This document shows positions 4,784-64,000 of a stretch of DNA of 64,000 bases, one piece after another (position 1 is the stretch's first letter; each line of letters opens with the position of its first letter). A program made the position numbers and the translations under genes. This stretch comes from Gnetum montanum (lineage: Eukaryota > Plantae > Gnetophyta): positions 1 through 64,000 of the forward strand of contig MNCI01002026.1 of NCBI GenBank assembly GCA_015680685.1, read 5' to 3'. Below the pieces are notes generated by a model. That model saw nothing but the letters and a program-made list of their open reading frames with translations, was not told where the DNA came from and searched no databases.

Positions 4784-7700
4784 ATTAACTACTGAGTCTA
4801 TTTGGAGGTATCTAGGCCTTGGTGTTGCCAGAGATCAGCAAGCACCTAAATCCTGTTCAAGGACACTCATTGGCGATCATGTCCTAAACGGTCGCCAACA
4901 ATTGTTCAACTAACTCCTCTTTGAGCTAGTTTAGGTAGGCCTCATGATTAACCTTATATTGCCACTTGTGATGCTTTTTTCTCCTACCCCACTCTAGGAC
5001 CCCAAGCATAGTGTTCTTTCTAATTCTCAACGTTTTGGGAGATGAGGTTCATTTGCATCTATTATTCTACCATCTCATGTGATAGCACTGCTTTATCCCA
5101 AATGGAATGCCAATAGGGGACCCATGTGATCTCTTTAGTTTGTAATTCCCTTATATTAGCCACTTGGGCTTCCACAAAGGCCTTGCGGTCCTTGAGCTCT
5201 CTAATTATCGCCTCCTACTATTGAATTTTTTCCCTCAAGGCCAAAATTTGCTCCCATAGAGATTTTTTGGACCTCTTCAACTAGCATGAAGTTTTGGCAC
5301 ACAACATTACTAGATCAATAGAAATCTCATATAACTTCAAGAGTATACTAGAGACATTAGAGGGAAGCTTTGGCAAGGAGTCCATCTTAATGTCTCAGCT
5401 GGGGTTCCACGCCATAGAAGGCACTACATAATCATAAAATACAACCATAAACATAGCATGTAACCTATGATAACCATAATATAAATCTTGTGACATAGCA
5501 AAATAAATAAGGCATAGAAAACAAAGTTCTTTTCTATGTTAGGTGCAACTTGGTGTAACTGGTCAATGATGTCCTTAGCCATCTTGTGCATGAATTCGAC
5601 CTTGTTCGAGACCTCTACCCATGGTTTCACATGAAACTTAGGGATAGGGGCATGAATTGGTGGCTCAAGAACTACTATAACCATAACAATCATTGAATGG
5701 TTAAGATGAAAATCAAACATAAAATAATAATACATAACAAGAAATGTAAATACATGTGCATACTCGGCTCCTTCTCCTCTTCCTCTAGGATGATGATGAG
5801 AGATGTGCTTGGTACTACCTCATTGAACAAGGCAACTAGATCAACATTGGTAAACCCTTCAACCTCATGTTGTTATAAGAGTGTCTTCTCTACACATCTT
5901 TGTTCAAAATTGGCTATAGTAGCTGCATGTCTCTATGCCTCCTCCTTCACAATAACTTGGGTTGCAATGATCTAGTTCTTGTCTATAAACATAACACATA
6001 AAAAATTGATTAGCACTAGAAATTGTAATGTAGCCATAAGAAATTAAAATATAGAATAGCTAACATGTAAATAAATCTTACCTATGACTACTTGCTCTAA
6101 TGACTTAAACTTAAACTTAAGCTTCTTTGTGGTAGGCTGGTTTGATGTTGGTGGTGGTTCCTTTATGGGCCTCTTGAGCTTTGCCCTAGCTTTCCCTTTA
6201 GCTTCTTTGTGTTACCATTTGGCCTTTAGGATGCTCATTGAGATTGTGAGGGGCTCCTTCTCCATGCTTTCATGGGATTGGCATGGTGTAGCATCAAAAT
6301 CCTTGGTGGTAATGGACAATGAATCCTCCATCCCCTTTGGTGGATTTTGGGCCTATACTGTTGGATAAATGTGCCTTATCGAAGGTTTATAAATCTAGTC
6401 TTGGTCTTAAGACATCCATCATTCATTCCTTCATAGCACCAAGAATTCTAAAAACCTCTTCAAGTAACTTGCAAAAATGCAAAATGCATGTGGATGATCA
6501 TAGAGGTTTCCTTATGGACTCTAAGGATCTCATCCTGATGTCCAACAACCAAAGCAGCTACTCTATTGAACCTGATGTCATCTATTAGGGCATTTTAAAA
6601 GGTCTGCCCCTATGTGATGTTGATTACCTTCTTTTGTGATAATAGTTTAGGAAATTCATGGGACCTATTCATGAAGTTATCCATGAAAATTCCAAAGTGT
6701 CCCCTTCTAGCACCAAGCCACTCCAAAAATTTCTCATGATGGTTACTTCCTTCACTATTCTAGTGGCAACCTTTACCCCATCAGTGGGGACATCAAACAA
6801 GTTGCAAAAGGTGCTTCCATCAATGGCTATGGTAATCAAAACACCTCAAATGATGGTGCAGAGGCTATTAACTTCTTCATTGAAGGAGTCAATGACATTT
6901 AGCATCTTTGTGGTGGGAATGGAAAGGATAGGTGCCATAAACAAATCAAACAAAGTCACATGCTGAATTTTTGATTGAATCTACCTAGGCACCTATCCCC
7001 TCAACCACACCTGTGCTGGTATCACCTCACCAAATGTCATGATGAGGGTATCCTCATGATGTCTTGTAAGTGACAAGGTAACATCAGCAAAGGTTGAGGG
7101 TCTTGCAAGGAAACAACCAATACTTAGCATCAACATAAGTAAATTTAACAACTAGTTAAAATGATAGAATGCTTGGAATATTTATAACCATAAAAAATTA
7201 GAAGCTATAATCTTTATGTTCATCCTTTTTCTTTCTCTTCGGTGTGGTTTGAGTAGAGGTACTAGCTGCTAGGATCTAATCCAAGGAGCTCTTGGAGACC
7301 ACCCACTAGTTATGTATCATCCTCTCATCCACACACTTCTTGTAGACAAGGTTGAATATACTAGTTTATTCATCAATGTCTCATCTTAACTATTCATACA
7401 CAACAATTTTTATCTAGGAGCCCTTGGTAAATACATCTAAGGTAGTTTGAGCTACCACCAAGGTTTGATAATTAGTAATCAAGCCTTAATCGTTGATCCT
7501 ATATCTGCAAGAAGTTCACAAAATCAATGAAGTTGGCAAAGGTAGTTTATCTAATAAAGCTAAAAAAATAAAAATACTATAATAACCATGTTCACCCTTG
7601 TAGATGGTACATGGTACCAAGTGCATTCTAGAATAATGTATGGGCTCTATGTGCCACCATCAAAGAATTGTTAGTATTATATTGACTATACTGTCACATA

Positions 7701-8040
7701 GTCTAGATCTCCATGAGGTAACATGGACTAATCATGTTTGTAGTTTTTCCTATTGTCTTAGGAGATTCCTTGTTAGTAATAATCCTGGCAACCAGATTGG
7801 ATGCCCAAGGAATTAGTGTTTCCACTATGATCCTAACCACATTCATGGACAAGTGTGACCACAACATCACACTAAAGTTTTGAAAAATGTAAGGAATTCC
7901 CTTATGCCTAGCTAGAACCATAATGAGACCTTGGCTAAGGTCATATTGGGTAGAGGGGTATTGGCCTTGGGTTGGCCAATGTAGCATAGGATGCCTACTA
8001 ACTCCACGATGATGAGTATGGGCTTTAGAGGAACCCTACA
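4784..8040 (-). pseudogene. B antisense multi-exon gene (FCP1-like pseudophosphatase + PMD/Transposase_32-like + coiled coil), decayed
   Basis: Blocks homologous to A: KPILIIVELVGIL, FSVMLWSHLS, AHRAHTLF*NALGTMY, LFDLF..KMLNVIDSFNEE..NLFDVP, WVEVSNKVEFM..IIDQL, AWNPS. GT donors at 7595, 6081, 5763 and 4783. Confidence 0.8.
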
Positions 8041-9874
8041 TGACAAAACAAAAATATTAGGACCGATTGAAACTACTTAACAAGTTTGTAAAAACATCCT
8101 AGTTAGAGGTGAAATTAGCCCTTGTAAAAAGATCTAAGTATTTATTAAAATTTTCTTAATGAATTCATGCCAAAAAATTACAACCTTTCATAGCCTTGTA
8201 CATCATGGCCAAAACATTATAGCCTAGACAACACAACAAGTTGATGCATAGCCAAACATGAAATCTAAAAAATAGCCATTAGCATAAACATTAAAAAAAA
8301 TAGAAAAAATACTTATAGCTATTAAAATCAAATTTAGAACATCAAAAAAATTTCATAAAATCCACAAAGACATGAAAGTTGATATGAGAAACCTCTACAC
8401 ATGTCAATCACATCCATCTCTAAAGGGGTCAAGTGCTACAACCAAAATTTAACATTGTTGACATAGCCATAACCAAAAATTCATTAAAAATTCATTCAAG
8501 CTCCAATTCTAGTGATTCTAACAAGAAAGTAATCCTTAAATCATGATCCTTCTAGCCATAGCCATTACAACTAGAAATACATAACCATATTTTTCATAAA
8601 ATATTACCAAAGCTAGGAAAAATTGTAGCCATCACCATTAATTGCCTTTCGTGCAAGGTTGGGAGAAAGCTTATTAGAAATCTTTTTGAGATTAAAAAAA
8701 AAGTGATTCAACCATTATTTTAACACTTGAATTGATCCCTACACACCCATAATTTACAAAAATTTATAACCCTTGCCATTTGATTAGAAAAAAATTATTA
8801 ATTTGGATAAAAATCTAGAAATAGTACAAACCTCGATTTGACACAAGTTTAATGAAAAATTCATTAAATTTTTTTTCTAATCCAAATAGAGTGATTCCAC
8901 ACCTATTAGAAAGTTGAATCCAAGACACAACTAGCCATGAACAAAACTTAGCAAAAACCCTTTCAAGTTAGGAAAAATTCATGAATCTACATGGAATTCT
9001 AAAAATGGCATGAAAAACCTAATTGCATGACCTCACAAAAATAGCGATAACTTCATCATTATTAACCCAAATTGAATGCGAAAATAGCCATGGGAAAGCT
9101 TAAATGTAGCACTAAAAGCCTATAACATCAAATATTAAAATTATGTAGTTTTTTCTTAATAAAAAATATACAACATTACTTGCATTTTTCATGCAAAAAT
9201 CAACAAAAAAAGCTTAAAATTCATAAAGCCTAATTTAACAAAGCCATGAAAAATAGTCAAAACAGCCTAAATAATTGATATCCATTTTAAAAAATCAAGA
9301 AGAGGGGGAAATGTTTTGTTGAAATTTACTTTTGATGAATCTTTTAGCCTAGATCTAAGAAAAATGGTTGTATCCGCAAATTTATGGAAAAAACATGAAA
9401 ATAGCATGCCTAATTTTAAAATTCAAATCTACCAAAGCCAGAATAATGAAATGACCATAGCTCTATGTAGAAACAAAAAAAATAAGAGATGGAATTTCAT
9501 TGAAATTTCATTTTAACCCCTCTATTAGTGTAGATTTGAAAAAAATGGCCCCACATATGGTAAGAAAAATAAGAAAATTGGCTAGAAAGTAAGAAAAAAA
9601 TGGCTAGAATTGCCTAGCTTGGAGTAGCCATGGATGAAACTTGGATTGAAATGGATCTAGGTAACCCTGATAGGTCCTTGGCATGCTCATCCACCTTCTA
9701 AATTATGGGATTCCAATTCTTCCCTCCACACTTCTTGGGCACCATAGTTGTTGCACCATGGCTAGGAATGGTTGAAATATGGGAAGAATGGACGTCCAAC
9801 ACTAGCTGAAATGTAGATTGGAGGCTTCCAAATTGAAGATTGATGCTCTCTACAATAAGAAATCTCTACCTAGT

Positions 9875-11167
9875 TGTGCTGTCTGAAATCCTCAGTGCAC
9901 AACTCGAATGAAATGGACACCAAGAGGTCCACAGACAGGAACAGAAGACTCTACCTTCGCTTGAGGGCAAGTTGGAATTGACAAAGGTAGAGTACCTTGG
10001 ATGGTTTGCACATGGATCAGATAAGGATTTACCCAACATACACTAATGCATGATACATTGGGTTATGTGTAAACAGCATAATAAATGTACACTAGAACGT
10101 GAAACGTGCAGGGATGTAAATGGGAGATAGACAAAAATGAATGAAAACTATAGCAAATCTTAGCAAAAAAAATGTAGCAATATTATTGCATGATGAAAAT
10201 TACAATGCATTGGTCTAAACACAGTTATGGATCTGACACAAGGCGGACGAAGAGCCCCGGTGGATGCAGAGGGATAATGGTATGCTGGTCTCAGTTATAG
10301 GCATAGCGTGAAGGCTGTATGCTCAGCATGCAGGGTTGAAGTCCAACATGCAGGATTGGTGTTCTGATTTGCTAAGTGTTCTCAGGTTTTTTATCTCGAG
10401 TTTGCCCAAAATTTCCAACCCCGATCTAGTGAAAAATTGGGGTTTTTATGAGGTTTCTTTGGGCGTTGAATTCGGATCTGGAAAGGTATGAGTGGTTGTG
10501 GGATGTTAGAATTTCGAATTGGGTGACATGTGGAGCATTAACCAAGTGCAAAAGAATAAAACTTTACAAGTGTACAGCGTGAACCATGCCAGCATGTACA
10601 TGCTGGGCATATACGCTAGGCGTACACGTTCCACACGCTTGACAATGTGTGGATAAGCATGAAGAATTCCTGATCAAATTTTGAATTGTGGAGCTATTTT
10701 GCACCCCGATCTAGATGTTTGATGTCCCAAGGATGCTGTCTATCAAATTTAGGCTCATTTGAACTGGATTTGACATGGTTCTAGAGGACCTTCATTGATG
10801 TACATTGTGCTGCACATTGGATGGTGCACGTGGGGCGTACACGCTAGGCATACACGCTAGGCGTACACGCTAGGTATACACACTGGGCGTACACGCTAAG
10901 CGTACATGTTGGGTGTACACGCTAGGCATGCAGGCTGGGCGTACATGCTGGGCATGCAGGATGCATGCCTAGTAGAAACCAAGTATTTCAGGCTCAAAAT
11001 TTTGGCAGGGTTCGACGCCAGATGTTGCTGTAGTCTGTTGTTAGTCCCGGGGAACCATTTCTTGCTCAGTTCGACACCGTCTAAAGCTTCATTCATGCTG
11101 GGGAGCATCATGACCTAGCTTGATTCTTGTTAGAGAAGTACTAAGCTCAAAATTTTGTGGTGTTTCA
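9875..11167 (-). repeat. A 3' LTR
   Basis: Direct repeat of 26917-28162; begins TGAAACACCAC on the minus strand, next to the PPT. Confidence 0.95.
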
Positions 11168-12795: not shown

Positions 12796-12815
12796 GTGCA
12801 TACCTGAGTTCATGG

Positions 12816-15800
12816 TCAAACGTAGAACAGTTTTAAGTACAAGTGATTGGTCGGATGTGCAAGCTCATTGCCTTCTATGTTAGCCAATTTAAATGCTCCA
12901 TTGTTGTACATTTTGGTTACCAAGTAGGGCCCTTCCTAGTTGGCTAAGAATTTGTCTGAGTGTTCTCGAATGGCTTTGAGTACAAGTTCACCTTCTTTGA
13001 TTAGGTGCTTATGAATATTGTGTCAATGGCACTATCATTGTTACTTTTGGTACCATTCAATCTGATCGAGCGCACGTGTGCCTTCCTACTCCACTGAGTC
13101 CAAGTCAACAATGTGTAGTCGTTGTTTTGTCCTTTGTTGAGGAGTTCAGAGAGTGTGATCCTTAAAGATAGTACCTACAACTCCAAAGAGAAAATATCTT
13201 TTGAACCATAAACAATACTATATGGCATTTTACCTATAGAGGTCTGATGCGTGGTGCAATAAGCCCATAGTGCATATACTAACTATTTGTGCCATTTTTT
13301 CTTGCCCTAAGTTAGCATCCTTTTGAGCACTGTGATGATGATCTTATTTGTAGCTTCAGCTTGTCCATTTCTCTGAGGGTAGTAAGGGGATGAAAATGAA
13401 TGTTTGATCCCTAGGCTTTCATAAAAAGTTCTAGTTTCGGCATTGTTGAACTGTGTCCCGTTATTAGTGATGATGGTCATCGGAATGCCAAAGTAGGTCA
13501 TGATGTTTTCTAGAATGAATTTGCATACGTGTTTGGATGTGATATTTCTAAGGGGAATAGCTTCAACCAATTTTTGAAATATTCTATTGTGGTTATGATA
13601 AAGCTATGTCCTACCAAAGATGGAGGCGTTATTGGTCCAACAAGTCTAACCTCCACTTCTGGAAAGGCCAGGTGATCTGCATTGTATGCAGCTCATTTGG
13701 TGGAACATGTATCAAATTGCTATTTTTTTGATAGATATTGCACATTTTGGCCTTGGAGAAACAATCGTACTCCATGTGTGGCCAATAATAGCCTAAACGT
13801 CTTATTTTTTTTGCCATTTCTTTAGGTGCTATGTGCCCTCCGCATAATCTGTCATGTACTTGCTCGACGATGGTTTGGCCATCAGTGCTACTAACGCATG
13901 TTAACAAGATGCCTTCATAGGATCAATGACATAATGTGTCACCTACCACTGCATACTGTCGAGAACATTTTCGTACTACGTCCTTTTGTACAGTCATCAA
14001 ATGTTGAGGCAGTTCACTATGTAAAAGATACTCCTTTATGTCATCATACCATTCTACAACTTGCGTTGTACTAACTGATGCGATCAATAATTCATCTAGA
14101 CTATTAGTTATGGGTTTAGTACAACTGATTATAGCATTGGGTAATGTGTGGAACATGGTTGGCAGTATGTTTAGTGCTAATGTGGTAAGTGCATCTACAA
14201 TGGTGTTATCATTTCTGGAAACATGTTGCACATCTACATTTTTGAATCACTTCAGTAAGTGCTTAGTCAAATCATAGTATGGTTGCAAGTGTTGTGCTTT
14301 GCACACATAACTGTCTATGACCTGATTTAGAACTAATTGTGAGTCACCTCTGACTACCAGTCATGTGATGTCTGAAGCTAATGCTACCATGGGACCTCTA
14401 AGGAGACCTTCGTACTCTACTACGTTGTTGGTACAGTGAAAGTCGAAATGATAAGCAAAGGGTTGGATCTCCCTAGAGGGATAGGTGATGACAGCAGTAG
14501 CACTTCCCCCTCTAGAGGTGGATGCTTCATCAAAGTTTAAAATGGCATCGTAGTCATCGGGTACTATGTCTATTGCACTCACATTTTCATCAGAGAATTC
14601 TGGTTCTATCATTGCCTGATGGTGCATTGGTGATGTAGTCATTTGATTTGCTATGGCTTGACCCTTAACTGATAATTGCACTATGTAGCGTAGGTCAAAC
14701 TCAGCTATCATGGCTTTCCAACGAGCTATTCTACTTGACTCATAAATGTTTCCTGTGATGGCTTTGAGTACATTATCCTTGCAAATTATATTGACTTGGT
14801 TACGGAAGAGGTAATGTCGCCAGTTATTTAGGGAAAAGACAAGGGCTAAACATGACCTTTCCACCTCATTGTACTTCTTCTCATGGGCTACTAATGCATG
14901 TCTTAAGTAATAAATAGGGACTTTAGTTCTATCCTCTCATTTTTGGCAAAGCATGGACGCGATTGATAAGTCTGAAGTGGCAAGGTAGATGTAGAACAGT
15001 TTATCATTTCGAGGTGGATAAACTATGGGTAGTTGAACAAGCGTTGTTTTAATGTTGTCAAACACTTCCTAGCACTGTGAAGTCCATTCAAAATAGATGT
15101 TCTTGCATAGCAAGTGGTTCATAGGTTTCAACTTGTCTGTCAATTTTTCTATGAAATGCCTGATGAACTGTAATCTTCCTTGTAGACCGCAAAGTTCGGT
15201 AAGGTTTCTAGGTGGTTTTAAGTTTGTTATGGCCTTAACCTTATTAGGGTCTACTTGTATCCCTACTTCTGAGGCTATGAATCCAAACATTTTTCCTGTT
15301 TTGACTCCAAAGACACATTTCCTTGGGTTAAGTCTCAGCTCATATTTTAAGCAACACTTTAGCACCAAGTCAAGATGTTGTACATGTTGTTCTGATGTTT
15401 TTGATTTAACCATGATATCATCCACATAGTCATTGAGTGAGTTGAAGATATAATCACTAAAGATAAATGGCATCGCTCTTTGGTATGTAGCACCGGCATT
15501 CTTGAGATCAAATGACATCATCGTGTAGCAAAAAGTACCCCATGGTGTTATAAAGGTCATCCTAAGTTGATGCTCAGGGTTAATTTGAATCTAGTTATAT
15601 CCTAAAAAGCCATCCCTAAAAGATAATAAGGCATGCCCAGCGGTTGAGTCGACCAGTTGATCAATGCTAGGTAGGGAAAAATCATCTTTTATCATTACAA
15701 CGTTGAGGTCCTGGAAGTTAATGCATAGGTGAATGCTTCCGTTCTTCTTTGGGACAATGACCATGTTGGATACCCAGTCAGTATAGTCAACAACCAAAAT

Positions 15801-16289
15801 GAAACCAGCCTGATAAATTTTGGTGATTTCATTATGAACTGCCAATGCTAGCTCAGGCTTAACCTTATGTGCTTTTTGTTTCACTGGTCTTAATTTTGGG
15901 TTGAGTATAATGTTGTGCTAGACTATTCGAGGATTTAACCTAGGCATGTCAGTGTAAGACCAAGCGAATGCTTTTATGTTATCTTTAAGCACTTATGCTA
16001 TGTCACTGGCTAGTTGTGGGCTTAACAATGTACTTAGTTTCAGGATTTTAACTTCACCATCTAGCACGGTAATGGGGACTTCGGCTAAGGGGTCTTCGGT
16101 GATGCTATCTGTTTCTAGGTTCAAAGTCTTGGTCATCATTTCAAAGTAATCTAGCGTTTGTTGGGTTGATGCCACAAAAGTATCATTTGTCACTGAGCCT
16201 AAATTAATAGACTCCATATTGATTTCTTGGGTGATCGTTCCATGCGGTCCATTGATTGACAGTGGTAAGAATAATTGCTTGCTATCCAT
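12816..16289 (-). pseudogene. pol: A pol 3' part: RT - RNase H - archaeal-type RNase H (aRH) - integrase, with stops and frameshifts
   Basis: RT: FDLKNAGATYQRAM, YVDDI. RH: ERSCLALVFSLNNWRHYL. aRH: LNFDEAS, CTNNVVEYEGL, GDSQLV. INT: H..LCGGH, YYWPHM, PYYPQRNGQAEATNK. Confidence 0.93.
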
Positions 16290-16419
16290 GATGTTTGCTC
16301 CTACCAATAAATAGTGTGCAGTGTCAATCAGGTGGTTGGTTATTTTTGGATGTAAGTAATTTATGTGTTTATGCATCTAATTGGACCAAGGTATGTGAGG
16401 GTGTCGTACCCAGACACAT

Positions 16420-16595
16420 GGCAGTTTAGGGCCTTACCAAGCTGTGCCTGTTAGTTTATAGTCATAATGGACTGATCATGGAAGTTTAAGGTCTTACTAG
16501 GCCATTCGATAGTTTGGGGCTATTTCAGGCCATCATGGCAGTTTAAGGCCTTACCAGGCTAATCACGGTAGTTTAATGCCTTATCAGGCCGATTG
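16420..16595 (-). repeat. Short degenerate GGCC..AAACT repeats upstream of the A RT frame
   Basis: Units of about 29 nt such as GCCTGGTAAGGCCTTAAACTGCCATG on the minus strand. Confidence 0.7.
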
Positions 16596-16860
16596 CTATT
16601 CGTTCATGATGTATGGTTGATTGTATAATTTGTAATAGTTATTGAGTGTGAGATTGCTAGATATGAAGTTTGCACCAAAATGTTTAGTGTGGGCAATAGG
16701 AGTTGCTTTGCAGGAGAATATTTCATGTGGGTAGTGTTCATCCCGATGTACCATTGTCTTTGCTTTTATTGTGTTCATATGTGTTTACACGTACTTTGTA
16801 TTTTGGTTGATTAATTTTGGATAAATTATTCAAGGCACCATCAGCGTGTTTAACGTGGAA

Positions 16861-16874
16861 TATATAAATAGGGG
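16861..16874 (+). promoter_or_regulatory. Candidate TATA box of the A antisense gene
   Basis: TATATAAATAGGGG lies about 60 nt upstream of the ATG at 16923, among CAGCGTG motifs, oriented toward the antisense gene. Confidence 0.45.
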
Positions 16875-17832
16875 TTAGTGTGAACCAGCGACAGCATGCT
16901 TCTGAACTGATTTCGAGCGTAAATGTCCTAGCGTGAACCAACGATAGTGTGCATCTATGCTTAGTGTAAAATCGAGTGCAGCGTGACATAGAGACAACGG
17001 TCGGGCAATACAGGGCAAGGGTAGGCATAGGAACAATGCAGAGGGGGCGACAGAGGTGATAGAGGTCAGGGCATAGTGAGTTAAGGAAAGAATTCGAGTG
17101 TGCATACTCAGGTAAAACCCTTAACATAAATACTCTTCGCTGTGTATGGATTATCTGACCTATTTTCTTGTGGCTACATTCTAGTTTCTCCGATTTTCAT
17201 TGTACCTCTGTTTTATTTTTCATTAATTCTTGTTCTATTAATTCCTATTTTGTTCATTGGATTGAACCCCAGCATACATGATGCAGCATGAACATAGCGT
17301 GCAGCGTACATGACGTAGTGTGATCACAGCGTGCAGTGTGCGAGTCGCAGCGTGCAGTGTGCGAGTCGCAGCGTGCAGGGCCAAAACCCTAGTGTGCAAG
17401 ACGTAGCGTGAACACAGTGTACAGGGATTAGCATACACACTGGGATGGGAAAGGGTAAGGAGGTAGAAGGCCAAGGGAGGAAGGAGCCTAGTTTAACCTT
17501 CGCGGAGGAGAGTGAGGCGATGCTCTAGTGCCTGCCTAGACCCAGGATTGTGTCATGGTCTAGATCAGCGTGCAGGTGGGCTCTGTTCCTCGGTCACAGT
17601 TTACTACTTTCTTTCAAGTTTACTATTTGGGTGTATAGAATTTACGCAAGATCTCAGCATATGGGGGAAGATGTTAGGCATGCAGAGTTTCAGCGTGCAG
17701 GGTCTGCACACTGGGCATGAACAGTATTCTAGCGTGCAGGGTCTACATGCTAAGCGTGAACAGTCGTGATTTTTTTCTAAGTGTTGACCTCCAATGTGAA
17801 GTTTTATTTTGTTATTTAGTTTTCTTATATAG

Positions 17833-20800
17833 CTGATTTGCCATGATTTTCTGGGAACTTGCAAGGACCCTAAGCCTTTCCTCCTAGTGGTGGAGCTTGT
17901 TGGGGTTTTGGCGTGGTTTGGGCCCATTGATTTTGACAAACCTACTCCTGATATGATCATTGGTCAAAATGTGGTATGGTTTAGAACAGGTGTTAATGAG
18001 TTTCTTCCTTTCATGCTAGAGAGATTCAACATGATAATATGGTCTCACTTAAGTGATTAGTTAGCATGGAGCATGCTTGAGACCATGTTGCCAGGATCTT
18101 TGAATGGGGTAGTAGCTTTTATGGAGGACATTGATGAGGGACTACTCATGATTAAGGATGGTTCTTCTGGAGGACCTAGATCTACCCGCCCATTGTCGCA
18201 TGTATGGGACTTATTGTCAGATGGCCTTCACCACATTAATAACACCCTATTCCTAGCTACTCGTGCACATACTTTGTTCCAAAACCCTCCTGGAACGATG
18301 TATCGGGTGGGCAAGTAAAGTTGTTCAATTTATTGTTTCGCTTTGTTGCCTAGTATTTGTTTATGTTTTGACTGTCGTTTCTTTGCAGGCCTCAATTCGA
18401 TATAGAAGGGGTGTGTGTAGGCAATGATGCGCTCGCTTTGGCTCGTATCGCCTTAGAGGCTTTCATGGTAGCCCCACTCTCTGTGGTGCCGTGTTAGTGC
18501 AAACTAAGGATGATATTGTTCATTTTCACGAACGATAATCAAGGGCACTTGTGCAATGCGAGGCTAGGGGATGGCTACATGGGGATTGGTCCTGTAATGG
18601 GCCAGTTTTCCCACATGATTCTAATTTGGCACCTAGCTGGAATCCATCATCTGATGGTAGGTCACCATATTTTCTTACGCCTTAGTTTGTTTATTCTGCT
18701 ACATCATTGGTTATATTGACTCCACGGTGTTATCTTGTGCGTACAGTGGATGTCCCTTCTAGTGGAGCCACTATCACAACTGGGTGAGTACCTTGTTTAT
18801 GAAATTTGGGGAAATCAATGATGCACAATGATGGCTACATATCATCAGCTTTTTGAGTGATGCGGGCCTCATGGATTTGTTTACTACCCTGAGCCCTAAT
18901 ATTTCTGTGATGGAGATGATTAGAATCATTGATTCTTTCAATGAATCTGTCACCTGCTATAGCACTCTCATTAAGGGCATCAAATTGGTTTTCCATCTGT
19001 CGGAGGAGTTCTTTTCAGACTTCTTTGGTGTACCAGTAGCTGGGACTAAAGTGATTTTGGATAGAGTGTAGAAGGAGATCCATGTGGTTTGTGAATTGGA
19101 GGACTAGTTCGGTATTCTTAAAGGCTCTAAGGAATTCCCTATGCAGGGGAAATTGAAAGTGGTAGAAGTTAATGAGTTGTATCCCTTGTTCAGAGCATTG
19201 GTATTTCCCAAGTCTTTGTCTCAAGTAAGAAATTTTGGGGTAGAGCCTATGCATATCATGTACACTATTTTAGAGACTTGGGTACATTATAACTAGGCCT
19301 AGTTTTTTCTTTTGGGTTTACACAGGGAGATAGTGAGGTTACATTCAAATATTGAGGCACAATCCCACTTCACCTTTACGTTCTTTGCACATTACTTACG
19401 CCGGCTAGCTGAATTTTTATTTTTTCACGTAGATAACAAGTATGTGTTAAGCGATCACCACCAACTATCTCGTCTATGGATTCACCACTTATTTGAGATG
19501 GCCAAATCTCAGGATGCTCTTGAGGGGATTGACGAATTGGTTTCTATCACAATAGAGGGGTCATATGGTGGTTCAATTTATACATGTGACAGCGTAGGGT
19601 TGGAGCCAGATCGTGTGCCCTATACTACTAGGAGAGTCAATCAGGTGATCGAGGAAATGATCAAGAAAGAAAAATCAAAATTTTAGAAGTGTAAGCATCC
19701 TAGGGAAGTTGCTCTAACTATAGATGAACCCAGGGTGAAACGTATATGGTTTAAGATGCCTATATGGGGTAAGCTTGATTCACTAATTTGTCCTTGTCCT
19801 CATCATTATTTTTACTTTGTTTTTCAGTTGTTTATACAAAACTAACGTTGAATCTATGAATGTCACTAGAGTTAACTTCTGGAATAAGAAGAGAGAGGTT
19901 AGCACCAATAATCGAGGAGGAAGAGGTCTCAATGAACTTAAATGAGGAAGACAAAATGGGCAAAGATGAAATGGAAGGACTGAAAGATCAGGAGGAAGAT
20001 ACCACAGAAAAGGGTAACATCGATGATCAAGATGGGGTCAATGAGATGTTTGATGGCTTTCTCGGAGGGAGGCTAGACCATGGTGATCCTTCGAATCAGG
20101 AGGAAGACAGAGATTTTGGTATATTCACCATATTATGTTTATTTGCCTTTTGAATTGTGTGTTTCATTATTCAAAGTTTTAATTTTATATTTTTTACTAC
20201 TACTAGGCAAAAATTTTGAGACTAGGACACTTCCTAACATTCATTTGGAAGTCCCTATGATGAAGGCTCCCACAGAAATGACCACCGAAGTTAACCCATC
20301 TCCCATGCATGAACCATTTACTTGGATTGAAATTCCAAGTAAAATGGATTTTATAACTAGCATTGTTGATGAGGTAATTGATCGCATCGAGCAAGCTCAT
20401 CCTGAAATAGGTACATATATCTCGAGCTTTTCGAATCCTTCGATTTTTCACATCTGTTTCTATTGTCCAATGTCTAATGTATGTTTTCCTCATATGAGTA
20501 GGGGCTAAACTGAAATGGAATCCATCTGAGGTGCCTTGTATTGATAGTTTTTCTGTGCTTCCTCTAGAGATTGAGCAAGTACCTTGGCAAATTTATGATG
20601 AAGTGGCAGAATGTGTTGTGCAGAATGCTAAGTCTCTTTGGACGTGCAGGCGCTCCATCAAGAGGCTATGGTTGCAGATTCAGGTGAGCAAAAAAGAGAT
20701 TTCCAAGTTATCAGCTGAACGGGATGACCTCAAATTGCACTATGAGTTTGCCTCAGCGAATTTAACAGGTGATCGTTCTTGGCAAACTTCTGAAGTTACT

Positions 20801-21493
20801 TATAGCAGATATTGGAATTTATTAAATTGCCAAGTATCGATGACCCAGGAGCTAGCAAAGCGTAAGGCACAAATAGATTTACTGAACCTCAAATGTCAGG
20901 ACTGGAAGGCTTTCGCTTCTAAGGTGCGGAAATGGGGTCAAGATGAAAAGACCCATAAGTATCATTACAAAAAATCGTTGAAGGAGGTATCTATAGAGAA
21001 GCATCAGCTAGAGATGTTTGTTGAGAGTTTAGGCCTACGCTCTTCATTTGATGTGTTTGCTAAGCATACTGTGGTGGAGATGGAATCACCCAAGAGAGTA
21101 ATCACCATAGCTTCTGGGGAGGTTTCTGTGGGAGAGTTTCCTCTAAAATGTCCCACTTGGTCTACGGTGGACAAGGGGAAGGCTTTGGCCAACGTTGATC
21201 TGGGCCTTGATGGGACTGACTAGGCAAGCATCTCTAAAGAAGAAATCCTTCATCGGTTGGAATTCGGTCTAGGAGGATCTTCTTCAGTAAGTCATTTAAA
21301 TTTGTAAATTTTTTTTATTAGATAAATTTTGGGATTTTTCTCTTTTCCTTTTGTGTTAATGTGTTAATTGTTTTCTATTACCTTTTCGTAGGGTCATGGA
21401 GATGACGATGTTCAAGAAGGTGGTCCCAGCGGAGCAGGAACCCACGGTGCCAGAGAGTCTGAAGGGGACACCCCTCCCAATCGTGATGTTTAG
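17833..21493 (+). pseudogene. A antisense multi-exon gene (FCP1/NIF-like pseudophosphatase + PMD/Transposase_32-like + coiled coil + acidic tail)
   Basis: GT-AG introns at 18315-18388, 18657-18746, 19769-19869, 20119-20206, 20411-20501 and 21287-21391. The last four were checked and join the listed ORFs in frame to TAG 21491-21493. Possible first exon 16923-17111 (phase 0). Scattered TAG stops and frameshifts. Confidence 0.88.
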
Positions 21494-21834
21494 TTTTCAT
21501 TTTAATATTATCATGACTCATGTTTTTACATGAGTCGTAAACAGAAGGTTTTGCTTAGGATTATATATGAACTGATGGATGGAATCAATTAACTATTATA
21601 ATTATCCATTTGTATATGAATATATATTTATTATTTTTTTTCAATTGAGTTTTCTGTTATTCATTTTTTTTGTTTCAATTTTGAGTTTGTTCGAACATTG
21701 ATAAGCATAAATTTAAAGTGACAACCTTTTAGGCTAGAACGTAAACATGATGCAACAGTGTAAAATTTTTTTGTTCATTTTGTGATTTAAGCATAATGCA
21801 TGAAGTAGGAATATAAGAAATGCAAGAAAAGGTA

Positions 21835-21965
21835 CTAGTTTAAGGCCATTCTCGGCCCCATGTACTAGTTTTAGGCCATTTTGGGCCATATGTAAACAAG
21901 AGGAGTTTCGAGTGATACTGGTGGGTTCCTTGGTAAACTGGCCATTTCTAGCCATGGCTAGTTTT
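21835..21965 (-). repeat. GGCC..AAACTAG repeats just after the A gag-PR stop
   Basis: GGCCCAAAATGGCCTAAAACTAG and variants; same motif as C 60060-60490. Confidence 0.75.
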
Positions 21966-21995
21966 ATGTTGTTGCGGACATGTGATAGTTTAACG

Positions 21996-24900
21996 TCATT
22001 TCAGATGAACAATGTATTTTAATGGTTTAACAATTTTTTTGATTTTTCTGAATTTAACATTAGGAGTGATACTGATAGGTGTGATTCTGTACTCAATGTC
22101 CCCTTCACTGATTATGTTAAATGGTAATTCAGCCCAAGGGACGTCTGATGGAATAGGCTCTATGTTAGTGTCTTTTAGTGTTTCCGTATGTATAGTAGTT
22201 TCATTGTTTGTTGTAGTTTCCAAGTTAGATGGTGTATGTAAAGTTTTAGGTCTGGGTGTCTCTATGTTGGGTAAAGTTTCATTTACGTTTAATGGATCAT
22301 TGCTTACTAGTTGCGTGCAACTTTGTTTTTCATTTGTGTTATCCTTTTCAGGCTCTTCAAACTTAACCTTTGAGCCTTGGTCTATGTCCGTATGCGACAA
22401 GATGGTAGGTGTAGCAGCCTCCCCATGTATAATGATTTCACCGCCTTCATAAGGTAGATGAATCTCTTGGTGTATTGGGGAAGAGACTGCTTTGAGTTGG
22501 GCCAGCTAGGGTCTTCCTAATATTAAATTGAATCCTAGCATTTCGTCGATGACAACAAAGTTAGCTGATGTGGGGAATCGATCCTCGGCTATAAAGTTCA
22601 TAATTATGGTGCCTTTTACTACTACGCGTGATCCACTAAATGATTTTAAACATGTGGTGGAGGTTGGTCTGATTAGTTCTGTAAGCCCTAATTGTTCAAT
22701 GATGGGATAGGGTACTACGTTTGTGGCAGCTCTGTCATCTACATGCACCCGATGTATTTTGAATTGATTTACTTGTATCATTATGAACATAGGTGCAGTT
22801 GTCACTTCTCCTATTTTCTCATCAATTTTGATGTTGTCAATGTGGAAACGTAGTGATTTAGAAGTTGATCCTTGAGGCGAATACATTACCGCATGGATTG
22901 AAGGTTCATTTGCAGGTAAGTCTTCACTTACTGGGACCAATGTCAACATGCGTACTAGCACTTTGCGATGAGTTTGAGAAGTTAATATCAGGTTATATAG
23001 GCTTAAAGAAGTATTTTTCTATTTAAGTGCCTACGTAACTTATGTTAGGGCTATTGCCAGATCTTTACTGTTAGGTGTATGCTTGTTAATGGTTACTTGG
23101 TCCATTGGGCCCAACAATTTTATCTCATGTGTGGCTGGTTTGACGTTCTCTTCCATAATTGTTGATTTGGATGCATCATGTATTCCCAATGATTCTCCCT
23201 TAGTTTTTGGTTCATTAGTAGGTGATGCCATGGGTATTGCACTTAATGGAGTAGGCTTGGGGGGTCCCAAGGTGAGCTGTTAACGTTCCTTCTCCAATCA
23301 TTCTCATGTGAGCCTATCTGCCAGGCGTTCCCGCATGTGGCATAGGGGAACATTTGGTTTCTGAACATCTAGTTGCTCTGGAACCCATATGACGTATGAA
23401 GTATGATGGGGTTGTGATTGGATGGTTGAAGGTGGTTGAATGTCAAGCTGCCTAGGTGCTCTAACAACGTACGGGGTTGGTTTATTTTGTGTTTGCAGGG
23501 TGGAAGGTTGACGATTATCAGGATATTTGGGTATCCTGACAACATACGAAGTTGGTCTAGTTGGTGGTTATTCCTCCATAGTTGCGACCATAGGTGGCAT
23601 TCGGACTACATAGGGAGCAGGCCAGGTAGGAGGTTGCGTGTTTGCAGTAGTAGTGGTGGGAGGTACACACACCACGTATGGTTTTGGTGGTATGGTAGAT
23701 GCTGCCACCACGGGGGGTATCTAGATGACATAGGATCTTTGGGGGGTAGGTGAGTTACATGGAGAGTATGATGATTGAGGTGCAGGTGTTTGTGGAGTAG
23801 GAGAAATATGAACTACAAATGGTCTCTTAGGTATTTGTTGTTCATTATCTGAATAAATAGTGTTAATCCTAGGCACTTCTCGTTCATTGTCCAAGTGGAT
23901 AGTGTTAATTACATATGGAGCTTCCTTAGTATTTAGAGGATCCTTATATATGCCCATGGCCTGGTTTTGTGGTTTGACCGGGTTGGCCTCATCAAAAGTG
24001 ATCTGACCTCTGTCGATCATCCATTGGATATCTTGTTTCAAGGTGAAACAATAGTTAGTGCCATGCCCATTGAATTGATGATAATCACAAAAGCCGTCTA
24101 TTCTAAAGCCCCTTGGAACTGGGGGTTCATCTGGCATTGCTAAGCTTGGGCTCTCTACCAATTGACAGAATCGATCATGTCTTTGGATTGCTGCGGGGGA
24201 CAATTGTTTATTTTTCATTAACCTGGCCTTCAAGAGTTGGTCAAATAATTGTGAGTGTTTCATGGGTAACAGTGTGTATTGAGAGGGGTCCCTCCTCTCA
24301 AAGTTTCTTGCATGACCTAGCATAGGATTTTGTGATGCAGACAGTTTGGGTGCAGTAGCGGGAGCATGTCTAGCATAGTTAGTAGGGGCAGTAGGTGGTT
24401 TACCTTGTTGTCCCGTAATCGTTTGTTGTGTTTCCACTACTACTGCTATAGTTTCCTTAGCCTTTTCTTTGTCCTTCTTATTATGTTGGTTTTTAAAGGC
24501 TAAATAGGCGAGGTCATGGCTATTTTGGGCTACCTCTTCTATATTCTTTATTTGTACAAATGCTTGGCTAAGAGTGCATGTGTTAAGGTAGTATAATTTG
24601 GACTTCACAAAATCATTAACATCCCCTTTAAGAATAGTGAGGAGATAAGTCTCCGGAATTGGCTTATGAAGCTCATTGAGGGCAACACTCCACCATTGAA
24701 TAAATTTTTGAACAGGTTCAAGCGGTGCTTACTTGACCTGCATGAGGCTGTCAAGTGTTGCTTCAGGATTCAAGTTATACTTGAACCTAGTAATGAATTG
24801 GTGTAATAAATCTTCTAGCAAAGATATTGATTTTTGGGGCAAAGCTCGATACTAGTCAACTGCTCTCCCTATGAGGGACATGGGAAACACTTGCAAAATG

Positions 24901-26160
24901 GCATGTGGCCATGCTTGAAGTAACACACATTCTAATCTAAACGTTATAAGATGGGCGTTGGGGTCTATCTCCCCATTGTACTTGGTTAACGTGGAAGGAA
25001 ACACCCTTAGCTAACGTCAAAGGTGAAACCGAAGAGCTGATAGGGTCATCTTGGTAGAAATCCACTATCTTAAGCTCTTCGTCGGTAGCTATTTTGAGGT
25101 GCTTGACCTCATCAGTTAGCTCCTACATCAGCTTTTTGGCATCAGCCTAGCCTTGGGAACTAGGTGAGATAGTAGATTGATTATGTTGTGTAGTATACAA
25201 ATTAGATTGTTGTATGGTGAGCTGGAAGGAGGAGAGTTGTGTGGTTGGAGGTTGTGCTTGTGGAATATTCATAGTGGGTGGTACTAAGGGTGGCACATTG
25301 TAGGAAAAGGGTTGTTGTGGTTGTTGTTGTTGTACTTGGGGGATGTTAGTGGGTGGAACCATAGGAGGTGGTATGTTATAGTGAGGGGGTTGATGCGGTT
25401 GGACACCAGTTGCAACCCACTGCCCAGTCACGTTTTGTGTAGGAACACCCTGAACTTGTTGAGTTGAAGTGGTGAAGGGTGCTCCTTGGGTCTGGATTTG
25501 TGGTATGTAGTGTGCGGATGTAGAAGCTGGTATCACATATGGCATCCTGATCACTCAGGATGGGAAGGTCACTCCTATATTATTTTGAGGAGCTTGTTGA
25601 TGGGGTTGTATTTGCAAGAGAGGGGGTAATGTGATGACTGGAGGAATAGTTGCAAGGGGTATATTGAGTTGGGTATCGGTCACCAGGGATATGGGAATAA
25701 GCATGGATGGTTCCTATTGGGGTACATGTGTTTGGGTGATTTTAAATGGCTGGAGGAACATAGTTTCCCCTATGAATGGGTGAAACAGCGGGTTTGAGTA
25801 AGTTTGTGGGCTAAGGGTATGGTATGAATCTTCATGTTCAAACTGAGCTGCAAAATCATCCTCCTCTTCTAATTAAGTATTTTCCACAGACTGGTCTAGA
25901 GACTGACTCCTTAATAGGAGGAGCTGTAAGATGAGCTCAGAGTAGTGCTCTGGAAGAGGGATGATGTCATACGGGGAGGGGATGAACTCATGTCCTCCCC
26001 TATGAAATAGTTCATATTGTCTCTTAATCTCCATTTCAGTTTGATCAACTGCTAGGCCAGCTTGGACTTTTATGCATATAAAATTATATTGCTCTTTTGT
26101 TATAACATTAAATGAGGGATTTCTTCCTTACAATCTGAGAGACCGGCGAGGTCTCGCCAT
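21996..26160 (-). pseudogene. gag: A gag-protease frame (decayed)
   Basis: Starts MARPRRSLRL; Pro/Gln-rich region; retrotransposon gag core; Tat-type knuckle FCDYHQFNGHGTNYC; protease IHRVHVDDRAATNVV...FNLILGRP; ends with its own stop at 21996. Confidence 0.9.
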
Positions 26161-26745: not shown

Positions 26746-26894
26746 CTCAGATTGCTATGGAACAGGACACATATTCAGAGAGTGATGAAGTCATATTTAA
26801 TGTTGATGCAATGTAAATCTGAGAAAACCAGGTAGTAGATCGGAAGCACAGGGGGTGTGTGTATGAGATCAGGGTAGATTTAAACCATTTTAGG

Positions 26895-26911: not shown

Positions 26912-26916
26912 TTTTC

Positions 26917-28162
26917 TATGCTTTCTGAAATCATTAGTGCACAGTTGGAATGAAACAGACACCGAGAGGTCCACAAACAGGTACAGAAGACTCTACCTTC
27001 ACATGAGGGTGAGCTGGAATTGGCGAAGGTAGAGTACCTTGGGTGGTCTGCAAGTAGATTAGACAAGGATTTCCCCAACATACACTAATGTGCAATACAT
27101 TGGATTATGTGTAAACAACATAATAAATGTAAACTAGAACGTGAAACGTGCAGGGATGTAAATGGGAGATAGACAAAAACGAATGAAAACTGTAACAAAT
27201 CTTAGCAAAAAAAATGTAGCAATATTATTGCATGATGAAAATTACAATGCACCGGTCTAAACACAGTTGTGGATCTAACATAAGGTAGACGAAGAGCCCT
27301 GGTGGACGCAAAGGGATGATGGTATGTTGCTCTTGGCTATAGGAACAGTGTGAAGGCTGTATGCTCAGTGTGCAAGATTGGTGTTCTAATTTGCTAAGTG
27401 TTCTCTGGTTTTTTGTCTCTGGTTTGCCCAAAATTGCCAACCTTGATCTAGTGAAAAATTGGGGTTTTTATGAGGTTTTTTTGAGTGTCGGATTCAAATT
27501 TGGATAGGTATGAGTGGCTGTGGGATGCTTAAATTTCAGATCGGGTGACATGTGGAGCGTTGATCGAGTGCGAAAGAATAAAACTTTACAAGTTTACAAC
27601 ATGAACCATGCCAGTGTGTACATGCTAGGCGTATACGCTGGGCATACACGTTCCACACACTGGATAGCATGTGGACAAGCATGAAGAATTCCTGATCAAA
27701 TTTTAAACTGTGGAGCTATTTTGCCCCTGGATCTCAATGTCTAATGTCCCAAGGATGCAGTTTGTTGAATTTAGGCTCATTTGGACTAATCTGACATGGT
27801 TCTGGAGGACCTCCATTGATGTACACTATGCTACATGCTGGATGGTGCATGTTGGGCGTACACACTAGGCATACATGCTAGGCATACACACTGGTTGTAC
27901 ACTGTAGACATACACGCTGGGCGTGTATGCTGGGTGTACACGTTGGGTGTGCAGGATGCATGCCTAGTGGAAACCAAGTATTTTGGGCTCAAAAGTTTGG
28001 TAGGGTTCGATGCCAGATGTTGCCGTAGTCTGCTGTGGATCTTGGGGAACCATTTCTTGCTTGGTTCAACTCCGTCTGAAGCTTCAATCATGTTGGAGAG
28101 CATCATGACCTAGCTTGATTCTTGTCAGAGAAGTACTAAGCTTAGAAATTTGTGGTGTTTCA
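26917..28162 (-). repeat. A 5' LTR
   Basis: Direct repeat of 9875-11167; flanked by the PBS and the TSD. Confidence 0.95.
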
Positions 28163-31098: not shown

Positions 31099-31103
31099 AT
31101 CCA

Positions 31104-37466: not shown

Positions 37467-37467
37467 A

Positions 37468-42400: not shown

Positions 42401-42899
42401 AAGGCCATCATCAACTTGCTCAAGAAGATGCTCAACAATAGCAAGTGCAAATGGCATGAGTGGCTTGTCCATGCACTATGAGCGTATAGAACAACCTATT
42501 GTATGGAAACTAGTGTAACATCTTATAGCTTGGTTTATGGTTTTAAATTTTTTTTACCTCTTGAATTACAATTTCCATTACTCTGAGTAACTTTGACTAA
42601 CTTTATCAACAATGAGAAGAGTAAAGAGTTGTGGATAACGATCCTAGACTTGGTGGAAGAGTAGAATATGCAAGCACTTTCTCACATCAAGCACTAGCAA
42701 GATCAAGCGTAAGATCAAGGAAGGTGACCTAGTCCTCAAAGCCATCCATGAACATGTAGACTAATTCTTAGCCAACTAGGAAGGGTCCTTCCTTGTCACC
42801 CGAGCCTATGGTAATGGAGAATTTAGGGTAATTGACATGGATGGGAATGAGTTGGCCAATTTAGTCAATCATTCCTATCTAAAGCCATATTACATGTAG
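39453..42899 (+). pseudogene. pol: B pol 3' part: RT - RH - aRH - INT, heavily decayed
   Basis: Colinear with A pol: KDDFPLPSINQL, FMDGFSGYN, DYVDDI, GDSQL, YFTKWVEAIP, HSFSSPYYP; stop at 42897-42899. Confidence 0.92.
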
Positions 42900-59200: not shown

Positions 59201-59930
59201 CTCGTCAATAAAAAACCTAGGCCTACCTTGTTGACCTTTCATGACGAATCCATTAAGGACAACCCTAAAAAAGGTCAGGTGATAACAGTGCCCATGTTCA
59301 TCACCATCCAGGTTGGCCAACACTAAATCCGAAGATTACATGTAGATGACGGGGTGACCGCTAACGTCATCCCAGATCCCATAGTGGATAAACTAGGCCT
59401 AATTGATTAGATCAATCCTACCATAACGTCGTGTCTAAATTCGTTCAATGGGGCACGAGTGCAAGTCAAAGGGACAGTGCACATCAACTTTGTGGCAAGG
59501 GATCAGTTCCCCACAGACGCAACGTTTATTATCATCGAAGAGATGCCTAGCTTCAACTTGATCCTAGGGAGGTCTTGGTTAGCTCAACTGAGGGTAGTTT
59601 CATCACCTATCCATCAAGAGATCCATCTACCCTATGCAAGAGGAGATGTGATCATCCACGGTGATGAAATAATCCCTTAGGTTGTCAATAACATAGAGAT
59701 GGAATAGGGGTCGAAAATCGAAATGCCTGAAGATCAGTCCCCTGTCCAAACACTCGAATGAGCTAAAATAGTGGCTGATGATAGCCTACCTTGGGCCAAA
59801 CTACCATTCCAAGGGGAAGATTGTGGAATGAAGGAAAAGGGTCATAAATCTCCTCATCTTTACGCATCACAAAAAATAAAAGCAATCAAGAAATAATTAT
59901 AGAGTTAGCAGGTAAACCTCGTTATCTAAC
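56250..59930 (+). pseudogene. gag: C gag-protease frame (decayed)
   Basis: KYNGEGDPNTHL..F.MSLTGKALDWY; FCDYHQLCGYDTNYC; LHVDDGVTANVI; FNLILGRSWL. Confidence 0.9.
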
Positions 59931-63500: not shown

Positions 63501-64000
63501 ATAAAACAATAGTTAAGCCAAGGTAACAAAAATGAGACAACTTCATACATCATCACTAGCTAATAACATTGATACAATTCATCATCATAATAAGGTTTAC
63601 CAGGTCTAAATGGTAAAGGAAATGGAGGAATTTTCCTTTGCACGTCTGCGATGGTGAGGGGAGGATCCAAAGTCCACTCCCCATCTAGCCATCTAGGTTT
63701 TTTGCATCTAGAAAAGAAGTTGGCATAGCAGGTAGGGTATTCTAGGATTTCAAATGCTAGTTATCCGATGACACTAGCCCGTACGTTGTTGATAGAAGTA
63801 AATTCCCTTATAGCCCTTTCGGTCAATGACAATGTATCGTTATCGCCCAGGAGACCACTATCATTGATGAAGAATCTATATCACAGAAGATAGAAAAATT
63901 CTTTACGCTCAACGCAAATTTAAATAATAGTTAGCATATTGCAACACATCGAAAAGAAACAAAAAAAACTTACCTGCCTGCATAATGCACGGTACTAGGT
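60600..64000 (-). pseudogene. C antisense multi-exon gene, homologous to the A and B genes (5' part outside the window)
   Basis: MDLFLAITPN..LVNSFN..FFDLFGVP, YPLFRA..FPK, FN*ASYF.EGLH.EMVRL, IVPRNIYEEM..SLW, W..MEKGK. Donors at 63973, about 63600, 62442, 62139, 61879 and 60977. Confidence 0.88.

Follow-up and report, generated by a model that had tools for sequence, protein, structure and literature searches.

Among the systems already described that come closest to the one considered here are the aORF-3R genes of plant long terminal repeat (LTR) retrotransposons (maize Grande gene23, rice RIRE2 and Silene Retand ORF4), which according to PMC7264820 run antisense to gag-pol, are inherited with their elements and mostly have no known function. 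As reported there, their products have no clear similarity to known proteins, the exceptions being PvRetro13 ORF2, with an SMC domain, and Retand ORF4, with a Transposase_28 domain; the same publication asks that attention be paid to spliced antisense transcripts. In Neumann 2019 (PMC6317226) the extra open reading frames (ORFs) of gypsy elements are sorted into 314 similarity groups, 21% of them resembling known domains, and in the Ogre elements, again as described there, the gag-protease frame and the frame for reverse transcriptase (RT), RNase H and integrase are parted by a spliced intron, the spacer having a mean length of 274 bp. The present analysis concerns a stretch of 64,000 nucleotides from Gnetum montanum (GenBank assembly GCA_015680685.1, contig MNCI01002026.1, positions 1 to 64,000), here called the window, in which three related copies (A, B and C) of a NIF/FCP1-like gene occur, copy A lying within a Ty3/gypsy element on the strand opposite to gag-pol. 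On balance, and with some reserve, positions 17833-18497 (+) are best read as a decayed copy of a spliced antisense gene belonging to a giant Ty3/gypsy lineage, the product of which would be an inactive NIF HAD domain, likely a binding module or decoy.

That the domain is a true FCP1/SCP (NIF) HAD homologue, albeit one that has lost its catalytic residues, is close to certain. The evidence begins with a phmmer search of 1.84 billion representatives, in which six of the seven matches at E<=0.001 bear the PF03031 NIF domain in their own right (Pfam E 1e-13 to 1e-42); their phmmer E-values run from 2.6e-6 to 1.9e-4, they span query residues 13-156, i.e. nearly the whole query, and their named sources are Bidens, Helianthus (“putative FCP1 domain, HAD superfamily protein”), Sphagnum and a red alga. 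The top match of that search, P0002, is a spurious one to a bacterial PKD/RCC1 repeat protein. A profile made from copies A and B, when aligned to the six NIF relatives using hhalign, gave a probability of 98.3% and an E-value of 2.5e-14 over 142 columns, and the same two-copy profile reached UBLCP1 (3shq_A) at E 0.0017, in an alignment running from motif II to motif IV; with the host relatives included in the profile the latter value became 4e-10. UBLCP1 is the only solved structure that was reached by sequence profile. In the ESM Atlas, the N-terminal half of the domain fell to NIF clusters in all 30 of the named matches, and the C-terminal half gave no usable match. An AlphaFold model computed on a 10-row alignment (pLDDT 68.8, pTM 0.67) retrieved CTDNEP1, SCP1-3, TIM50 and FCP1 in Foldseek, with 15 matches at E<=0.001. 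To judge from these comparisons, the nearest relatives are uncharacterised D-x-N NIF-domain proteins (named for their motif I, see below) from plants, moss and a red alga, and not the FCP1/CPL phosphatases that act on the carboxy-terminal domain (CTD) of RNA polymerase II.

It might be asked whether the resemblance to NIF/FCP1 could be no more than a chance similarity of short motifs, given that NIF, although the sole Pfam match of the copy A peptide (residues 44-84, E 0.027), scores only 14.6 bits against a gathering cut-off of 21.8, that phmmer with the same peptide against the sequences of the PDB returned nothing at E<=10, and that the top library match was the spurious P0002. This explanation is, however, refuted by the six independent NIF proteins, the hhalign result and the match to UBLCP1, and its probability may be regarded as negligible. 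Other null results should be recorded here: the pieces of copy B gave no Pfam match, and a word-indexed protein search with the copy A peptide gave no scored match (23 candidates near it in length, 387 longer).

In HAD phosphatases the first Asp forms an aspartyl-phosphate intermediate, and the acids of motif IV hold Mg2+. It is these residues that are altered in the element copies. In the hhalign and MAFFT columns motif I reads E-L-V-G-V in copy A and E-L-V-G-I in copy B, against D-(V/I/L)-N-G-(L/F) in all six relatives, and motif IV has A-T (A) or A-H (B) where the six relatives and UBLCP1 have D-D, the whole of D-D-S/T-P thus corresponding to A-T/H-R-A in both copies. The Ser of motif II is retained (A has IWS and B has LWS where the relatives have VW(T/S)), and at the motif III column, where all six relatives have Lys, copy A has Arg; copy B is unaligned there. 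VELVG and A-T/H-RAHTLF are among the best-conserved stretches between A and B. Losses situated in blocks conserved at the protein level, between copies whose synonymous sites are saturated, imply that they predate the separation of A from B and are not private decay. On the strength of the motif losses, phosphatase activity is predicted to be abolished.

A still-active enzyme, employing Glu as its nucleophile and other residues for metal binding, is very unlikely. It could appeal to the retained Ser of motif II, to the basic Arg at the Lys column of motif III and to the chemical nearness of Glu to Asp, but it would have to accommodate the joint disappearance of the nucleophile and of both Asp residues of motif IV, all of which are kept in six out of six relatives, as well as a Val at position +2; moreover, two mutants of the active site are among the SCP1 structures listed by Foldseek, namely D98A and D206A, and in entries for D206A phosphate or a phosphoryl-intermediate is trapped.

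Much of this had been anticipated in a preliminary description of the locus, made from the sequence, which proposed a fold homologous to FCP1 whose motif I (given as DxD/N) had become ELV and whose motif IV had become A(T/H)RA. The homology is borne out by the six NIF matches, by hhalign and by the UBLCP1 profile match, and the replacement of motif IV by the alignment columns in both A and B. The placing of ELV at motif I likewise stands for both copies, with the qualification that the host family is already D-x-N and so without the second Asp of DxD. That description further held the losses to be ancestral and not the result of decay after insertion, with which the conserved blocks and saturated synonymous sites agree, for the two copies in which the motifs can be read. 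Profile and structure searches, which it had suggested, returned NIF proteins in the first case and FCP/SCP structures in the second, the Foldseek matches coming from the NIF-containing alignment.

The peptides it quoted for A and B, and the end of the exon in C, are found on translation where it had placed them. The copy A frame at 17833-18318 (+) reads LICHDFLGTCKDPKPFLLVVELVG...IWSHLSD*LAWS...NNTLFLATRAHTLFQNPPGTMYRVGK* (asterisks here and below standing for stops), the sole in-frame TAG of exon 1 being at 18058-18060, and a pyrimidine tract with AG lies ahead of the exon. Copy B, at 8076-7596 (minus), reads ...KPILIIVELVGILCY...LWF*LGIREFL / ...FSVMLWSHLS...NNSLMVAHRAHTLF*NALGTMY, and the minus-strand translation of 63999-63973 in copy C is PSTVHYAGR. 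The feature had been given as 17833..18656; its start is sustained, but its end is not, the NIF frame consisting of exon 1, an intron of 74 nt and exon 2, which closes at the TAG of 18495-18497 (Table 1).

The intron interrupts the frame in phase 2 in all three copies, with a GT donor after exon 1 and an AG acceptor before exon 2. Past the intron the frame stays open, reaching a stop after 35 (A), 37 (C) and 29 (B) codons of exon 2, and the exon 2 peptide (in A, ...GNDALALARIALEAF) matches the last helix of the host NIF relatives and of UBLCP1, with the pattern D..L...L..YL..L. Read in this way, the NIF frame has about 195 codons and the coding blocks downstream of it appear to be separate.

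Table 1. Principal features of the window. Exon/intron boundaries at donor sites are marked by a slash.
Feature	Positions	Strand	Remarks
Copy A exon 1, NIF/FCP1-like gene	17833..18314	+	Motifs I-IV of HAD domain; one in-frame TAG
Copy A intron 1	18315..18388	+	74 nt, GTAAAG...GCAG, phase 2; donor GGCAA/GTAAAG after last exon 1 base 18314; acceptor AG
Copy A exon 2 to stop TAG (18495-18497)	18389..18497	+	Last domain helix, ...GNDALALARIALEAF...
Copy A second block	18554..19683	+	WLxGxW, DLF...SFN...F.D.FGVP, YPLFRA...; stops and frame change
Copy A tail block	20296..21220	+	Longest open frame 20498-21220, 241 aa
Copy B exon 1	7596..8076	-	One frameshift, four stops; VELVG and AHRAH retained
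Copy B intron 1 (7595-7505) and exon 2 to stop	7414..7595	-	Intron 91 nt, GTGAAC...TGCAG, phase 2; donor CAAGG/GTGAAC after last exon 1 base 7596; acceptor AG
Copy B downstream blocks	4953..7049	-	Match those of A
Copy C exon 1, final nine codons	63974..64000	-	PSTVHYAG-R; remainder past window end
Copy C intron 1 (63973-63876) and exon 2 to stop 63763-63761	63761..63973	-	Intron 98 nt, GTAAGT...ATAG, phase 2; donor GGCAG/GTAAGT after last exon 1 base 63974; acceptor AG
Copy C downstream blocks	61077..63709	-	36-40% amino-acid identity to A over longer pieces
Spacer splitting pol	16377..21998	.	5.6 kb, between protease and RT; houses antisense genes
3' LTR, copy A element	9875..11167	-	Target-site duplication CTAGT at 9870-9874
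5' LTR, copy A element	26917..28162	-	Target-site duplication CTAGT at 28163-28167
gag-like and protease-like region, copy A element	22347..26154	-	33-62% amino-acid identity to 56259-59737 (+)
RT, RNase H, integrase, copy A element	12816..16280	-	Ty3/gypsy domain order
gag-like and protease-like region, copy C element	56259..59737	+	Upstream of C, opposite strand; layout as in A
Third related RT, RNase H, integrase	39465..42899	+	Possibly copy B's element

When the window was compared with itself, tblastx gave 28-56% amino-acid identity between A and B and between A and C over some 3.3 kb, and blastn gave no match among the three copies at the DNA level; the likeness of A, B and C exceeds chance. 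The pattern of change within codons is informative here. Between A and B, the NIF exon has identities of 0.56, 0.77 and 0.25 at codon positions 1, 2 and 3 (from the tblastx alignments, with 0.265 as the random expectation), and synonymous sites are saturated (pS 0.95). Corresponding figures are 0.48-0.54, 0.58-0.65 and 0.32-0.37 for the other antisense blocks, 0.62-0.70, 0.79-0.80 and 0.31-0.35 for the element's own gag and protease, and 0.69, 0.75 and 0.42 for its RT-RNase H. A third position at the random level, taken with the intact splice signals, argues for a long period of constraint on the protein in an active lineage, and it is accordingly probable that the protein was under selection in the past while that lineage was active.

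It is against this pattern that the likeliest of the rival readings has to be set, namely that a host NIF fragment was captured and has simply been carried along without function, the changes in its active site and its conservation being of no meaning to the element. Capture of gene fragments by plant LTR elements is common, and the extra ORFs so far catalogued are very heterogeneous (Neumann 2019, PMC6317226); in addition, no start codon has been found, no transcript of copy A has been seen and every copy in the window is broken. Yet positions 1 and 2 are conserved over a random position 3 much as they are in the element's gag, protease and RT, the residues that replace the catalytic motifs are among the best conserved between A and B, and the GT..AG signals, intron position and intron phase have been kept in three copies whose DNA blastn can no longer align, which argues against a functionless fragment. 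This explanation is therefore considered improbable, though by no means fanciful.

The element that carries copy A is of the Ty3/gypsy type, 18.3 kb long, and lies on the minus strand at 9870-28167, target-site duplications included. Its LTRs form a pair of direct repeats that are 83% identical, have TG..CA ends and are flanked by a perfect 5-bp duplication, CTAGT. Pfam identifies RVT_1 (2.9e-13), RT_RNaseH (3.1e-15), Integrase_H2C2 (2.4e-8) and rve (1.6e-9) at 12816..16280; the protease, by contrast, is called from a reading of its motifs, Pfam having no match there. The sense frame of the element is closed by a stop codon at 21999 and is taken up again at about 16376. The gene had originally been described as encoded by a retrotransposon, and the LTR pair and the 5-bp duplication uphold this in so far as it lies inside such an element; it must be remembered, however, that the NIF-like gene and the blocks that follow it are on the plus strand, antisense to gag-pol, and that the gene forms no part of the polyprotein.

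The surroundings of the other copies bear on whether the gene belongs to the element. Upstream of copy C, the region 56259-59737 (+) has a near-threshold Pfam match to Retrotrans_gag, and the gag and protease of the A and C elements are about 55% identical at the protein level; in both elements the antisense block points the same way and stands at a similar distance from the protease (roughly 1.2-1.4 kb), and the junction on the protease side has a conserved patch and a repeat array that are common to A and C. The third RT, RNase H and integrase region, at 39465-42899, may belong with copy B, from which two nested LTR elements separate it. The antisense gene is present in all three of the related copies that cover its region within the window, and it is very probably an inherited part of the element lineage.

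There remains the question of how it came to lie between protease and RT. Could the 5.6-kb block have entered the linker between the two by an insertion of its own, as an independent mobile element or gene? An interrupted pol is unusual, and 30-nt repeats containing AGTTTAAGGCC are found in direct orientation at both edges of the spacer (16415-16594 and 21832-21894); other nested insertions also occur in the window. Such an event is nevertheless distinctly improbable, since A and C, with their gag and protease at about 55% identity, agree in the place, orientation, protease distance and junction patch of the block, since the third RT copy has repeat-like sequence just upstream of RT in its translated frames, and since neither terminal inverted repeats nor LTRs belonging to the block were found in 16200-22100. 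A single ancient insertion, inherited thereafter, would amount to the best explanation. Arrays of 27-30 nt with AGTTTAAGGCC are also seen at the corresponding edge of C (60063-60319), where the counterpart of the spacer edge is 59737-61077, and a similar repeat lies at about 39000-39200, upstream of RT in the third copy, where it is visible in translated frames only, repeat finders being silent. These arrays may mark boundaries or have a regulatory role. Candidate sense splice sites around the spacer are weak: in C there is CAG/GTAAAC close behind the gag-protease frame, and in A and the third copy YAG/GAGCAAA precedes the RT frame.

Antisense coding sequence continues for about 2.6 kb beyond the NIF frame, in blocks that have 28-40% amino-acid identity across the copies and no significant relative in Pfam or the PDB. 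The second block of copy A has no Pfam match, and its best E-value in a profile search of the PDB is 2.1. For the tail frame at 20498-21220, Pfam gives only weak sub-threshold matches, mostly to coiled-coil families, and the word-indexed search gave no scored match among 211 candidates. Pfam was run on 60 of the 86 listed frames of at least 80 aa in the window, and in these it found retroelement domains alone, none of them in the downstream blocks. It may be that these blocks constitute a second accessory gene. In the second block the same codon is an in-frame TAG in A (19285-19300) and in C (62932-62917), for which a real frame boundary and a parallel change from CAG to TAG would be equally good explanations.

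As regards expression, no RNA run is listed as containing the sequence. Portions of four RNA runs with the species label of the window (26%, 26%, 26% and 2% of their reads) yielded 36, 23, 25 and 66 reads, nearly all of them partial fits and none extending over the exon-exon junction. The matches are few and short, and seemingly come from diverged relatives; the result is firm in neither direction. Among the poly(A) RNA-seq reads there are some that match short stretches (20314-20352, 20691-20733 and 19378-19389) and then continue into unlike sequence, which would fit expression of diverged relatives of the tail blocks.

A number of points weigh against regarding copy A as the remnant of a selected, element-borne pseudophosphatase gene, and these are best considered together. 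As to the gene itself, copies A, B and C are all broken, A having one stop in the NIF frame and B a frameshift and five stops, so that none is functional now, and the downstream blocks carry several stops; neither a start codon nor an upstream exon for the NIF frame was found in the copies examined; and no read fitting copy A was present in the four partly read RNA runs. As to the homology, the Pfam score of copy A is under the curated cut-off (14.6 against 21.8 bits), and the C-terminal half, taken alone, is recognised by neither Pfam nor the ESM Atlas. The 10-row AlphaFold model leans on true NIF sequences, making it consistent with the homology but not independent of it, and AlphaFold on A and B alone gave an unusable model (pLDDT 43.6), for which the finding of no Foldseek match at E<=0.001 is uninformative. 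The dead motifs are read in two copies, A and B, copy C ending at the window edge, and the host family, which is uncharacterised, already has D-x-N in motif I, which puts the status of the parent as an enzyme in doubt. Finally, the tblastx alignments were selected for likeness of protein, so that the identities at codon positions 1 and 2 come out too high, and the connection between copy B and its element is one that we only infer.

If the antisense gene is nevertheless taken to have been an inherited and selected part of its lineage, its history might be reconstructed as follows. A single capture from a host NIF-domain gene, either as DNA or as unspliced RNA, would have brought the domain into the element; its phosphatase activity would have ended once the nucleophile and the acids that hold the metal were gone; and the protein would have been kept because the element gained from its binding to a substrate of the host family or to one of that family's partners. 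The antisense intron would survive retrotransposition because the template of reverse transcription is the sense RNA, on which its splice sites do not appear, so that it would not be spliced out, as may be expected from the way in which such elements replicate. A binding or decoy role, however, is itself a tentative proposal and a rather unlikely one. Less likely again is the more elaborate scheme in which the intron-like spacer of a split pol hosts a spliced antisense cassette whose first gene is a pseudophosphatase decoy, trapping the partner of a host NIF protein so that the element escapes host control; by analogy, such a decoy might be likened to the anti-silencing factors of other transposons. 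The preliminary description had suggested that the protein could bind the phosphorylated CTD of RNA polymerase II, or another phosphoprotein, and so promote expression of the element. No result obtained here supports binding of the CTD or promotion of expression, and no RNA of copy A was seen in the four partly read runs.

The interest of the locus lies partly in the fact that, although extra genes are common in plant LTR elements, a fold can be recognised, or a function put to the test, for hardly any of them, whereas for the copy A gene both a fold and a likely source family can be named. The specific replacement of catalytic residues, with the rest of the domain probably under selection, leads to a concrete hypothesis, that of a binding-only decoy of a host NIF protein. 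The position within a split pol and the antisense intron bear, in turn, on how RT is expressed and on how intron-bearing genes pass through reverse transcription. Even if the gene were a mere carried fragment, it would provide a clean case for annotators of an element-borne offshoot that falls under the Pfam threshold and is easily missed.

Some further features of the window may be noted. The copy A element is nested within older repeat sequence that holds copy B. A second pair of LTRs (744 bp, 88% identical) bounds an element of 7.1 kb at 31103-38210, between copy B and the third RT copy; none of ten frames tested in it (33528-37258) has a Pfam domain, and it is possibly non-autonomous. Downstream of the integrase region of the copy A element there is a 37-nt tandem repeat of 8.7 copies (12465-12796). 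Related short tandem repeats (CAGCGTGCAG..., GGCGTACACGCTA) occur at 17270-17378 and 17683-17760, at 26440-26745 and at 10833-10955, that is, upstream of antisense exon 1, beside the 5' LTR and inside the LTRs, and these may be shared regulatory repeats.

Turning to the comparison with known systems, the whole domain is held in common, according to hhalign, with the D-x-N NIF proteins P0003 (Bidens), P0004 (Sphagnum), P0006 (Helianthus) and P0008 (Cyanidiococcus). Strings common to these proteins and the element copies include PD.IIG, R...EFL.F..ERFN...W(S/T), NT(L/I)(F/L)L and NPP.T, although overall identity is only 21-28%. All six aligned NIF domains (one from each relative) have D-x-N in motif I, and the family may be non-canonical as an enzyme; its members do keep the nucleophile Asp, which is Glu in the element copies, and the Asp-Asp of motif IV, replaced there by Ala-Thr/His. 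They are also long proteins, four of the six (P0003-P0006) having two tandem NIF domains and P0006 having its NIF fused to the plant domain DUF724, whereas the element frame comprises one domain of about 195 codons for which no start was found. They are the likely source family of the captured gene.

UBLCP1 (PDB 3shq) is described in PMC5451543 as a proteasome phosphatase of the FCP/SCP family. The element domain aligns to it from motif II to motif IV, and again at the last helix, the two differing at motif IV, where UBLCP1 has DD and the element AT. Inspection by eye of 29 frames of at least 30 aa in A and B revealed no ubiquitin-like frame upstream of exon 1, and nothing was found that would connect the product of the element gene with the proteasome. 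SCP1-3, CTDNEP1, FCP1 and TIM50 are similar to the model derived from the NIF-containing alignment (Foldseek probability 0.97-1.00, query TM-score 0.44-0.57), but at only 10-19% identity, and none was reached by sequence at E<=0.001; the similarity does not imply binding to the CTD. TIM50 is a member of the FCP/SCP family with a non-enzymatic role.

Among retrotransposon genes, the resemblance to aORF-3R consists in a position between the two LTRs of an element and an orientation antisense to gag-pol. The aORF-3R genes, however, lie between pol and the 3' LTR, whereas the gene described here is situated between protease (ending at about 22000) and RT (beginning at about 16376) and has an identified domain and a conserved intron. 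With Ogre it is the splitting of pol that is shared, the break falling between protease and RT in both, but the Ogre spacer, at its mean of 274 bp, is not described as coding, in contrast to the 5.6 kb with antisense genes in the copy A element. A literature search at the level of titles and abstracts found no retrotransposon with a NIF, FCP1, UBLCP1 or HAD domain, and the supplement text of PMC6317226 contains no entry for NIF, FCP1, pfam03031 or HAD, though the full domain table may lie outside that text. What is already known, then, is the antisense accessory gene as such; what appears to be new is its site in the spacer between protease and RT, its conserved intron, and an identifiable pseudo-enzyme domain presumably derived from the host.

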